The position numbers and the translations under genes were made by a program. The notes beneath the pieces were generated by a model. The model saw nothing but the letters and a program-made list of their open reading frames with translations. It made no database searches and was not told the origin of the DNA. From Malacoraja senta (lineage: Eukaryota), in contig CM075994.1 in the NCBI GenBank assembly GCA_038087875.1, forward strand, positions 3,164,001-3,228,000: a stretch of 64,000 nucleotides of DNA, read 5' to 3'. Below are positions 310 through 63,901 of this stretch, one piece after another (position 1 is the stretch's first letter; the number at the start of each line of letters is the position of its first letter).

Positions 310-345
310 AAATTAAACGATTGGAAGAACGTGTAAAGGATGCAG
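310..345 (+). CDS. Candidate micro-exon, 36 nt, phase 1-1, xIKRLEERVKDA
   Basis: Long pyrimidine tract plus ttttcag acceptor; CAG/gttaga donor; open frame giving a coiled-coil-like peptide. Confidence 0.6.
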
Positions 346-658
346 GTTAGACTAAAAACATGTGTACTGTTTTCGGTCACTAAGAAATCCACCAGAATGT
401 TCGATACACGTGGGCGGGCATGCAACTCTATGTGCACGAAACACATAAACTTATATGGACTTTTATTTATTTATTTGTGCACAAAGGGCCAACATTAATA
501 CAAACATCATACTCCTTTCATACAAACATCATGCGTCGGTCACTAGATGCGTTTACATTATGTTACATGTCGTGCCTGTTGCTTGAGACACATCGGGTTG
601 AAGGAAACTGGGCTCGCCTTCGCTTTGCGGCTTTACGCTACTGGCATATCTGGCACAC

Positions 659-858
659 NNNNNNNNNNNNNNNNNNNNNNNNNNNNNNNNNNNNNNNNNN
701 NNNNNNNNNNNNNNNNNNNNNNNNNNNNNNNNNNNNNNNNNNNNNNNNNNNNNNNNNNNNNNNNNNNNNNNNNNNNNNNNNNNNNNNNNNNNNNNNNNNN
801 NNNNNNNNNNNNNNNNNNNNNNNNNNNNNNNNNNNNNNNNNNNNNNNNNNNNNNNNNN
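659..858. other. Assembly gap (200 N)
   Basis: Run of N. Confidence 1.
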
Positions 859-1028
859 AAATGGCAAACCCAGAAATCTTTTCCAGAGGGCCTGTACATA
901 ATCTGTGGATATGATCTCGTATTAAAGGGGAGAGAAATGCTCATCTGTCTACTGTTTTCTCATGTCATATATTTTGTTGTTTTTCTACCAATTTGAAAAC
1001 TTTGCATTGCTTTGGTTGCATTGTACAG

Positions 1029-1055
1029 AAGAAGAACGAATGCTGCAAAAAACAG
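1029..1055 (+). CDS. Candidate micro-exon, 27 nt, phase 1-1, EEERMLQKT
   Basis: ttgtacag acceptor; CAG/gtaacg donor; purine-rich open frame. Confidence 0.6.
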
Positions 1056-1149
1056 GTAACGGGAGAAACCAAGCTTACTATGTTTTCTTTAAAGGCAAAA
1101 AAAGGCAATGTTTATTTTAAAAGCAAATAAAGACAGAACATTAGAAATG

Positions 1150-61070: not shown

Positions 61071-61239
61071 TTGTAGGACAGGGACTTATGTAGGACAGGG
61101 ACCGGCTTATTGCATCCAGCGCCTTCAAAGACGGCTGCTGGAAGCGTCCCCCGGGACACAGTGGCTGTCAGGCGAAGAAAGGGGTGTCGGGACGTCGGCC
61201 TGCAGCAGACTTGGGCTTACTTAGACTTACTGTAAAATT

Positions 61240-61335
61240 CCTTCACTCCATGGATGCTGCCTCATCCGCTGAGTTTATCCAGCATTTTTGTCTCACTACG
61301 ATTTTCCAGCATCTGCAGTTCCATCTTAAACACAC
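61240..61335 (+). repeat. Penelope pLTR 3' remnant
   Basis: ttccttcactccatggatgctgc...cgattttccagcatctgcagttcc matches 28212-28300. Confidence 0.8.
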
Positions 61336-62149
61336 CAGATAGAAAGTCAACAAGCATTCATTTTTTCAAAACAGAAAACGTGCCGCTGTTCTCTTTTAAA
61401 GTTTACAATAAATGCTGGTAACTCACAAATATCACCCAGACAAGCAAAGGTTTGCATATTGGGCAATGCCCACGATTGTTCATCAAGCCGTGAGTATCAG
61501 TTTATTCTTTGGTGTGAGAAGAATTATATTATCTTACTTATCTTTTCCTATGACAATGATCTTCAATTCTACACTCATTTCTTTCGATTTTGGTATTTTA
61601 CTTTTACTATTATTTGAGCATTCATTCCCTCATTAAATAATTTTGAAAATTGCGTGCAAGCTGTGAAATAGCGATTCTTTTCACAAACATGGATCATCCA
61701 TCGACGTAAATAACTTCACACACGTTTCAACAGAAAACAGGTCGATATACTTTCTAATCCAAACATGTCGCCGTGCAAATCCAGAAAAAATAAACGATTT
61801 ACGACAACGAAAAGTTAATTATCAATAGAGCAATAGTACAGAAGTTAAGTAATCATCTCATGCCAAAGAACAGTCTTTCCAACATTCAATATATATATAT
61901 ATATATATAAATACAACGTATTTTTATGCAAATTTGGAGGAAATCATTGTATGTCACATTGTTCATTCTCAGAAGATTAAAGAAATAGACATTCCATAAA
62001 TAACACGATTGATATTACAAAATGGCGATGGAGTATGTGTTAACGAAATCCCAAAAAGACAAATAAAGTAAATATGTTTAATATTCTTCGGTGGAACATC
62101 AATGGCAGGAATTTGTGGGCATAATCCAGAAGGTGCAGGATCATTTCAT

Positions 62150-63797
62150 TCCAAACAGGAAGTACGATACAAAGGGGACTTAGAGGCAACCGTGGCTGTC
62201 AAGAGAAGTTAGGGATGGTTGGAGTAAAACTAAAAGAAAAGTTGTATAACATAACTGAGAGTTTCGGGAAGCCAGAGGATTGGGAAACGTTCAAGGCCAA
62301 CAGAAGGAACAAAAAGAGCAATACGGGGTGAAAAGATGAAGTACGAGAGTAAGCTGGCCAAGAATATATAGAAGGATTGTAAACGCTTCTTCATGTAGGT
62401 TAAGAGAGGAAGATTAGTAAGGACAATGTGCGTACCCTAAAGGCAGAAAGAGGTGAAGAAATTATGGGGAACAAGTTAATGACAGAAGAGTTGAACAGGC
62501 ACTTTGGTTCTGTCTTCACAGAAGGAAGACACAGACAATCTCCCAGATGTACTAGAAGGGAACGGAAATAAATTTGCATTAGCCAAGAAGTAGTAACGGG
62601 TAGACTGATGAGACTGAAGGCTGATGAATTTCCATGGCCTGATGGTCTGCATCCCAGGGTACTGCAGGAGGTGACTCTCGCAATCGTGGACGCATTGGTG
62701 ATAATTTTCCAATATCCTATAGATTCAGGATCAGTTCCGGTGAGTTGGAGGGTAACTAATGTTAACCCATTTTCAAGAAAGGAGCGAGAGAGAAAACGAT
62801 AAATTATAGACCAGCTAGCCTGATATCAGTGGTGGGGCAGATGCTGGAGTTATTTGTTGAAGAACTAATAACGGCGCATTTGATTAGCAGTAAAAGGATT
62901 GGACCAATTCAGCATGGATTTATGGGGGAAATCCTGTTTCACTAATCTTCTGGAATTTGTTGCAGATGCAGTGTAGTATAGATGAATGTGGGGTTATCCA
63001 CTTTGGCGGCATGAACAAGGAGGCAGATAATTATCTCAATGGTGTCAGATTAGGAAAAGGGGAAGTGCAACGAGACCTGGGTGTCCGCGTGCACCTGTCA
63101 TTGAATGTCTACATGCAGGTACAGCAGGCAGTGAAGAAAGCTGATGGCATATTGCTCTTTATAATGAGAGGATGTATGTATTGGAGTAAATAGGTCCTTC
63201 TGCAGTTGTACAAGACTCTGGTGAGACCACATCGGGAGTATTGCCTGTAGTTTTGGTCTCCTCATTTGAATACGAACATTCTTATTATTATTATTATTCT
63301 TGCTATTGGGGCAGTGCAGTGTAGGTTCACGAGGGTAATCCCCGAGATGGCGGGACTGTCATATGATGAAAGATTGGAATGTATGGGCATTTATACAATG
63401 GAATTTACAAGGATGAGCGGGGATCTTACAGAAAAATACAAAATTATAAAAGGACACGACAAGCCAGGTGCAGGAAAATGTCCCCAATGTTCGCGCACTC
63501 CAGAACCAGGGGGCCGCAGTCCAAGAATAAAGGGGAGGCCATTTAAAACTGAGACGATGAAAAACGTTTTAACCCAGAGAGTTGTAAATTCTCTGCCACA
63601 GAAGGCAGTAGAGCCAATTCACTAGATTAATTTAAAAGATAGTTGGTTAGAGCTCAGGAGGCTAGCGGAATCAATTGATATGGGGAGAAAGCGGGCACGG
63701 GTTACTGATTGTGGATGATCAGCCATGAACACAATGCTTGCTCGAAGAGCCAAATGCCCCCCCCCCCCTGCACTTATTTTCTATGTTTCTATGTTTC
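62150..63797 (+). mobile_element. Decayed CR1 LINE with a large internal deletion near 62958
   Basis: PDGLHPRVL; CGVIHFGG; 3' tail ctatgtttctatgttt. Confidence 0.9.
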
Positions 63798-63890
63798 AAT
63801 ATCAAATCCTTAGATTTAACGTATTAAAATGAAATTAGAGGAAGAAATGTGTCAGCATTTCAAGTTCTTTCTGTTCTCCATTTGCAACAG

Positions 63891-63901
63891 AAGAGAAGTG
63901 A
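63891..63901 (+). CDS. Candidate terminal coding exon start (EEK*)
   Basis: Strong acceptor ttctttctgttctccatttgcaacag; the phase-1 frame reaches TGA at 63899-63901. Confidence 0.3.

Follow-up and report, generated by a model that had tools for sequence, protein, structure and literature searches.

Micro-exon genes at the locus

The window analysed here is a stretch of 64,000 nucleotides from contig CM075994.1 of Malacoraja senta (C18:3164001–3228000), within a 1.94-Gb assembly. It contains short plus-strand segments that a sequence-only reading had taken for a hidden protein-coding gene of symmetric phase-1 micro-exons. Window coordinates are used throughout, with negative values upstream, and the region examined spanned −400 kb to +1,064 kb (1.46 Mb), with repeats masked by self-BLAST. 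Very likely, these segments form the 3′ end of a gene of roughly 240 kb, referred to here as gene A, whose limits lie near −174.5 kb and +59/+64 kb. The gene runs across the window, as had been proposed, but it is far larger than the window and one of a family. The candidate micro-exons of the region belong to at least six genes, largely unannotated, each with dozens to more than 100 exons of 27 and 36 bases and predicted to encode coiled-coil rods.

Candidate exons were biased in strand, length and phase. Between −175 kb and +380 kb, 159 of 496 AG/GT pairs on the plus strand fell in the 24/27/36-nt classes, compared with 34 of 356 on the minus strand (P = 1e-15), and 153 of these 159 were open in phase 1, versus 74 and 86 in the other phases. 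The plus-strand length distribution across 864 kb peaked at 27 nt (95 versus 17 on the minus strand) and 36 nt (48 versus 23), both peaks being restricted to about −172 to +377 kb. A second plus-strand array extended from +478 kb to beyond +1,062 kb. At a score above 14, a trained exon model returned 431 candidates in ~1.2 Mb, arranged in blocks of 80, 112, 92, 137 and 9, plus 1 between blocks; decoys yielded 13, 11 and 8 in three scans. Since this model was trained on plus-strand exons of the same region, its counts (200 versus 17 at a score above 13) are not an independent test. The independent tests were the strand, length and phase count from −175 to +380 kb and the comparison of the neighbouring gene 2 with its duplicate.

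Gene 2 opens with a 120-nt ATG exon at +64.9 kb and closes with a stop exon at +376.5 kb; a whole duplicate of it lies at +756 to +1,020 kb. Between the two copies, 134 AG..GT pairs were conserved on the plus strand and 16 on the minus strand, and symmetric exons open in both copies numbered 102 and 0, respectively. The dN/dS was 0.38 (95% interval 0.30–0.46, 810 codons) and the terminal stop exon was conserved. Taken together, these counts, the dN/dS and the retained stop identify protein-coding exons under purifying selection. With the strand, length and phase enrichment, they bear out the proposal of a hidden micro-exon gene.

The gene A model joined 84 exons into 809 residues free of stops, the exons having been chosen for being open; 7 upstream candidates were omitted by eye as repeat-derived or off-pattern. 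Among 80 of its exons, 42 were 27 nt, 22 were 36 nt and eight were 24 nt long. The exons of gene A have collinear paralogues in the 3′ half of gene 2. For 18 pairs of such exons, picked by hand, substitutions affected 41, 25 and 75 of 154 sites at codon positions 1, 2 and 3, respectively, and the flanks were near random.

Gene A might instead splice on into the 120-nt exon, forming a 550-kb gene of ~190 exons and ~1,900 residues. That exon (+64899) is symmetric phase 1 with a conserved acceptor, no firm terminal exon was found for gene A, and a family member of 1,697 residues is annotated in Callorhinchus. We nevertheless consider such a continuous gene unlikely. The duplication took in the entire unit from +61.3 to +378 kb and left out the exons of the window, as expected for a separate gene. 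Moreover, each copy of the 120-nt exon opens with a Met in good context, and a similar ATG exon of 109–132 nt starts two other members.

Exons in the window

The sequence-only reading had counted about 20 exons; its list holds 18 segments, all of which (18/18) were preceded by AG, followed by GT and open in the phase given. Splice sites were scored with generic, untrained matrices as the sum of acceptor and donor bits. Thirteen of the 18 segments reached at least 10 bits, and weak sums were obtained at 43850 (4.6), 45076 (4.1), 47013 (5.6), 52594 (0.8) and 58534 (6.0). A 57-nt phase-1 exon (43811..43867) probably contains the 18-nt segment at 43850 as its 3′ end, judging by acceptor scores of 6.8 at 43811 versus −1.6 bits. 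Overall, the five coiled-coil exons were solid, with the one at 5329 likely, the acidic tail was mixed and four exons were weak. All exons described below are on the plus strand.

In bases 1–11,000, five candidates (21/24/27/36 nt, open in phase 1) were found versus 0.54 expected from decoys. A solid 36-nt phase-1 exon of the coiled-coil class (310..345) shared 72–78% nucleotide identity with exons of the same length at −28515, +334625 and +978292. Further solid phase-1 exons were located at 1029..1055 (27 nt, trained score 25), 10025..10051 (27 nt, 22) and 10670..10705 (36 nt, 24); the likely 27-nt exon at 5329..5355, also phase 1, had a trained score of 13. An assembly gap of 200 N, whose true size is not known, occupies 659..858. 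An additional 57-nt phase-1 candidate, absent from the original list, was noticed in a unique island at 26011–26067.

The tail region begins with a likely 27-nt phase-1 exon at 37271..37297 (strong donor, weak acceptor). From 36,300 to 59,100, the same length classes open in phase 1 gave six candidates versus 1.6 expected (P = 0.006); counted over all 3n lengths, the excess was not significant (8 versus 5.0, P = 0.14). The enriched set included this first exon, likely phase-1 exons at 38508..38534 (27 nt, without a paralogue), 39325..39345 and 42509..42529 (both 21 nt, judged on splice scores), and solid phase-1 exons at 43101..43127 (27 nt, trained score 24) and 44403..44423 (21 nt, acidic, trained score 22). 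The remaining candidates were more variable. A 21-nt candidate at 45076..45096 had a weak donor (3.8 + 0.3 bits), and a 12-nt candidate at 45495..45506 is possible (1.8 + 9.2 bits). A weak 29-nt candidate at 47013..47041 (phase 1 to 0) has its phase restored only by the 40-nt candidate at 50753..50792 (phase 0 to 1, strong sites), with a second assembly gap between them (49585..49784, 200 N, true size not known) that could hide exons of the tail. The acceptor of the 27-nt candidate at 52594..52620 was very weak (−7.7 + 8.5 bits). The 33-nt candidate at 58534..58566 had a weak donor and may alternatively be a terminal exon read through to 59072. Finally, an exon with an early phase-1 stop and a conserved acceptor starts at 63891 (63891..64000); its copy at +758 kb, which arose in the duplication of gene 2, was 85% identical over 127 nt and kept both acceptor and stop. 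From these features it would be either the stop exon of gene A or a 5′ exon of gene 2; a signal-like frame in it lacks a good phase-1 donor.

The mixed quality of the tail bears on whether gene A is a decaying duplicate, with AG/GT pairs that arose by chance making up some or all of its acidic exons. Splice sites are weak in five of the listed exons, the tail is without a paralogue, its enrichment hinges on the chosen length classes and no RNA was found to cover gene A. Decay is nonetheless improbable in view of the stop-free joining of 84 exons with heptad order (exons selected as open), the excess of third-position substitutions relative to gene 2 and the six tail candidates found.

A B30.2-bearing sister gene and its homologues

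A B30.2 profile built from 30 SPRY loci of the same genome picked out a single B30.2 frame across the 1.46 Mb. This frame lies at +569.6 kb and matches Pfam SPRY (E 1e-11); it is a phase-1 terminal exon and closes a sister gene that extends from +478 to +570 kb. The profile scan found no B30.2 frame after gene A, gene 2 or the gene 2 duplicate, with small doubt left by the two gaps in the window.

The sister B30.2 matched Narcine bancroftii proteins XP_069775384-90 as well as catshark, chimaera, little skate and basking shark proteins; the electric-ray orthologue was 65% identical. In RefSeq these homologues carry automatic names: 'zinc-binding protein A33-like' (XP_069775384-90), 'TRIM39-like' (Scyliorhinus canicula XP_038672306-10), 'nuclear-pore anchor-like' and 'TRIM58' (Callorhinchus milii XP_042192744 and XP_042191566-8, respectively) and 'TRIM69-like' (Leucoraja erinacea XP_055510696). 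Such names imply domains that the proteins do not have, as a Pfam search of six homologues returned SPRY only, with no RING, B-box or Ig domain. The sister gene aligned with Narcine XP_069775384 at a score of 292 (shuffled maximum 164) and with catshark XP_038672306 at 240 (shuffled maximum 116), and by this alignment evidence the two proteins are its orthologues. Of its 33 exons, 13 could be placed on the Narcine protein (score ≥21), in order (Spearman 0.95); the exon calls therefore agree with an independent annotation. RefSeq models of this kind usually rest on RNA alignments.

In a midpoint-rooted tree of 60 sequences, which included 45 drawn at random from the other matches and six TRIM-cluster-type copies of the same genome, the nine family B30.2 domains formed one clade (FastTree 1.0). 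The family spans ray, shark and chimaera. No description of a coiled-coil/B30.2 micro-exon family was found in the literature, within a limited reach into subscription papers, and the accessible part of a study of forkhead synteny does not name these genes (PMC10789856).

Predicted coiled-coil rod and exon register

Residues E, K, R, D, Q and L made up about 62–68% of the predicted proteins of gene A and other members, and Pro and Gly together about 3%. The sequence-only reading had described a helical first part, an acidic later part and Glu/Asp codons at the exon junctions. All three features were recovered, the commonest junction residues of the 84-exon model being E (46) and D (13). The heptad power of gene A (period 3.5) was 22.9 in the natural exon order, compared with 8.9 ± 2.0 after shuffling; two other gene models gave 19.3 and 21.6, versus about 11 and 10 when shuffled.

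Exon lengths matched this periodicity in pairs. Among 421 exons, 246 were 27 nt and 105 were 36 nt long, and only nine were multiples of 21 nt. The 36-nt exons alternated with 27-nt exons, and adjacency of 36-nt exons was avoided in three of five genes (gene A: 0 versus 5.8 expected). A pair of 9- and 12-residue exons amounts to exactly three heptads, so duplication of a pair preserves the register and skipping of a single exon breaks it. Arithmetically, and not as expression data, dropping one exon from the regular run of gene A reduced its heptad power from 2.5 to 0–1.0, whereas it stayed at 2.1–2.5 when a 27+36 pair was dropped.

These properties bear on the suggestion that frame-preserving, combinatorial skipping of symmetric exons generates many rod variants, in the manner of schistosome micro-exon genes. 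Every exon is indeed symmetric phase 1, and many exons predicted for the sister gene are missing from its Narcine orthologue. Isoforms of the homologues (Narcine X2 and X3, catshark X2, chimaera X2) are also distinguished by a single internal block, 6 or 9 residues long (an 18- or 27-nt exon), the 9-residue block of Narcine matching the exon at +530983. The suggestion is partly supported in that annotated isoforms of the homologues lack single exons, but the isoform sets hold only 3–5 forms each. Free combinatorial skipping is doubtful because the 9- and 12-residue exons hold the heptad register only in their natural order. The scarcity of 21-nt multiples, the loss of heptad power with one exon but not with a pair and the shunned adjacency of 36-nt exons argue in the same direction. 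A splice-diversified system is therefore a minority prospect.

For gene A, no Ig motif, transmembrane segment, RING, B-box or signal exon was found by regular-expression, motif and hydrophobicity scans, which covered 400 kb upstream. Three candidates were rejected: an Ig-like stretch at +74.4 kb (transposon sequence, common to contig C4876), a signal-like exon at +183028 (absent from the gene 2 duplicate) and a signal-like exon at +446 kb (by eye, transposon sequence in antisense). Among proteins of about 75–2000 residues, neither a profile of eleven 36-nt exons nor the 120-nt exon found a match. The ESM Atlas returned low scores only, and three candidate exons had no Pfam match.

Comparison with known systems

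Runs of small symmetric exons, as in gene A, are also present in triadin and troponin T. These differ from gene A in their neighbours and in that gene A has no transmembrane exon; no sequence link was found, though no search was aimed at one. Micro-exon genes of Schistosoma likewise have most of their coding sequence in very short symmetric exons and encode small secreted proteins. Gene A differs in its long acidic coiled coils and register constraints and in that no signal exon was detected before it.

The sister gene resembles B30.2-containing TRIM genes and butyrophilins in that its coiled coil precedes a terminal B30.2 exon of phase 1. Unlike TRIM proteins, the family has a micro-exon rod and neither RING nor B-box (regular-expression scans; Pfam on the six homologues), and its B30.2 clade was separate from the six TRIM-cluster-type copies. 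The RefSeq homologues share one architecture, a coiled-coil rod and a B30.2 belonging to a single clade, with RING, B-box and Ig all absent; compared with them, gene A lacks a B30.2 in the assembly and has a longer rod and an acidic tail.

According to PMC4046983, chicken BG genes have signal, Ig-V and transmembrane exons followed by 13–36 exons that measure 21 (sometimes 24) nt and encode a single heptad. They too, the zipper protein of the butyrophilin/B7 family included, encode a coiled coil in many tiny exons and form a multigene cluster that expands and contracts (PMC4046983). Here, in contrast, such 5′ exons were not found, and in place of the 21-nt one-heptad tail exons of BG there are exons of 27/36 nt, 33–137 per gene, with three heptads per pair. 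The defining features of chicken BG and of B30.2 TRIM genes are both lacking in gene A.

Could the segments be cytoplasmic-tail exons of a BG/butyrophilin-type receptor, with signal, Ig-V and transmembrane exons upstream? The architecture resembles that described for chicken BG (PMC4046983) and the sister gene carries a B30.2, so that the butyrophilin parallel of the sequence-only reading held at the level of the B30.2 superfamily. The upstream signal, Ig-V and transmembrane exons that it had pointed to did not appear in the scans. Other genes, among them the forkhead gene at −215 kb, close the upstream space, an Ig domain was present in none of the six homologues (Pfam), and exon lengths were 27/36 rather than 21 nt. 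A receptor of this type is very improbable.

Proposed origin and role of gene A

We propose, with a probability of about 0.65, that gene A is a ~240-kb, B30.2-less member of the family, that it encodes a cytoplasmic coiled-coil rod of 800 residues ending in an acidic tail, and that its exons are mostly spliced constitutively. The likely ancestor would be a short rod ending in B30.2, like the sister gene and the ray, shark and chimaera homologues, and gene A would have descended from it with loss of the B30.2. Symmetric phase-1 exons encoding 9, 12 or 8 residues each would make up the rod. The exon pattern suggests that it was lengthened by tandem duplication of 9+12 exon pairs, with frame and register kept. 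Most exons would likely be spliced constitutively and in order, single exons being skipped occasionally. If gene A is expressed and its product is cytoplasmic and dimeric, as we infer, then long B30.2-less paralogues may serve as dimeric spacers, scaffolds or partners of the B30.2-bearing members.

Several points weigh against this proposal. The untrained strand test was null in the window alone (3n pairs 15/34 on the plus and 10/24 on the minus strand, P = 1). The strand and 3n test suggested by the sequence-only reading thus gave weak evidence from the window by itself and became decisive only with the surroundings (−175 to +380 kb). No RNA dataset was listed as covering gene A at 37200–47100, and the dN/dS comes from gene 2 and its duplicate, not from gene A. 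Its start and end are uncertain, and the two assembly gaps could hide exons, a B30.2 included. The acidic tail exons had a counterpart in none of the other copies or homologues compared. The rod of gene A did not align with ray, shark and chimaera rods beyond exon-shuffled maxima (138 versus 152, 94 versus 96 and 229 versus 252, respectively). Membership in the family rests, for that reason, on exon classes, location, neighbour paralogy and a three-exon module (−151333, −147647, −147294) that matches the catshark protein and the sister gene (−147647 at 74% nucleotide identity). Leucoraja XP_055510696 and Callorhinchus XP_042192744 have an N-terminal hydrophobic stretch; therefore, not all members need be cytoplasmic. 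When contigs from four RNA runs of three other organisms were compared with +58.4 to +66.9 kb, repeats matched and no exon did, an uninformative result; two of the four runs were flagged as probably DNA.

More broadly, and only tentatively, it is possible that giant genes of a family not yet described occur in cartilaginous fish, well over 100 exons of 24–36 nt being spread over 250–500 kb in some of them. In such a family the 9+12 pair would set rod length, through pair duplication between paralogues and skipping within genes, placing B30.2 sensors on stalks of varied length alongside B30.2-less partners. More than 430 micro-exons in 1.25 Mb are at issue, and annotation shows the family only as misnamed fragments. 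Three heptads per two exons would be a third way to encode a coiled coil in exons, compared with one heptad per exon in BG, and the B30.2 domains, in proteins free of RING, B-box and Ig, form a clade of their own that occurs across ray, shark and chimaera. The genes offer a natural test case for the splicing of dozens of consecutive 27–36-nt exons amid multi-kb introns, and for whether rod length matters in B30.2 proteins.

Neighbouring genes, other members and sequence landscape

Pfam searches identified the forkhead gene (−215 kb) as well as frames with a death domain (−327 kb) and a zinc knuckle (+392 kb). From their translations, we take the neighbours to be FoxG, EDARADD-like, RBM4-like, AHNAK-like and HYLS1-like genes. 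Between the forkhead gene and gene A, acidic exon-like frames without a Pfam match were present on the minus strand at −198.4 kb and −184 kb. The RBM4-like gene was doubled, with 28 kb between the copies, and the first exon of the fifth micro-exon block had a 100% identical copy 51.5 kb off; each may be a recent duplication or an assembly artefact.

Two short patterns revealed more family members on C18 (5.08, 5.23 and 5.80 Mb), C4876, C4996 and C5. On C5, minus-strand candidates were found in 13 of 14 sampled stretches between 15.40 and 15.75 Mb, two of them weak, and the following 180 kb held 45 candidates on the minus versus 7 on the plus strand; the start of the array lies beyond the stretch examined. 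This minus-strand array of alternating 27- and 36(39)-nt exons (C5:15.40–15.92 Mb) spans at least 520 kb and is possibly the largest member. Upstream of the member on C4876, a cysteine-rich exon was seen at position 14700, presumably resembling a somatomedin-B motif. Genome-wide, SPRY gave at least 150 matches among 696 candidates, many clustered on C18 (4.56 Mb and 6.5–11.6 Mb) and others on small contigs; a large B30.2 expansion adjoins the micro-exon family on the same contig.

CpG observed/expected ratios in low-copy DNA of the window and all five micro-exon blocks (−175 to +1,017 kb) were 0.81–0.89, compared with 0.49–0.57 in three flanking stretches of equal G+C content. These long CpG-rich domains may have escaped germline methylation. 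Within the window, a Gypsy-like LTR retrotransposon on the minus strand (13600–18300), with both terminal repeats, was nested in another repeat. A C-rich reverse-transcriptase element, Penelope-like by eye, formed near-identical head-to-tail copies ~4 kb apart at 26500–36300. The stretch at 53300–58150 was Helitron-like by eye, with a 71-bp minisatellite, a TG tract of 1.1 kb and a disrupted helicase-like frame.

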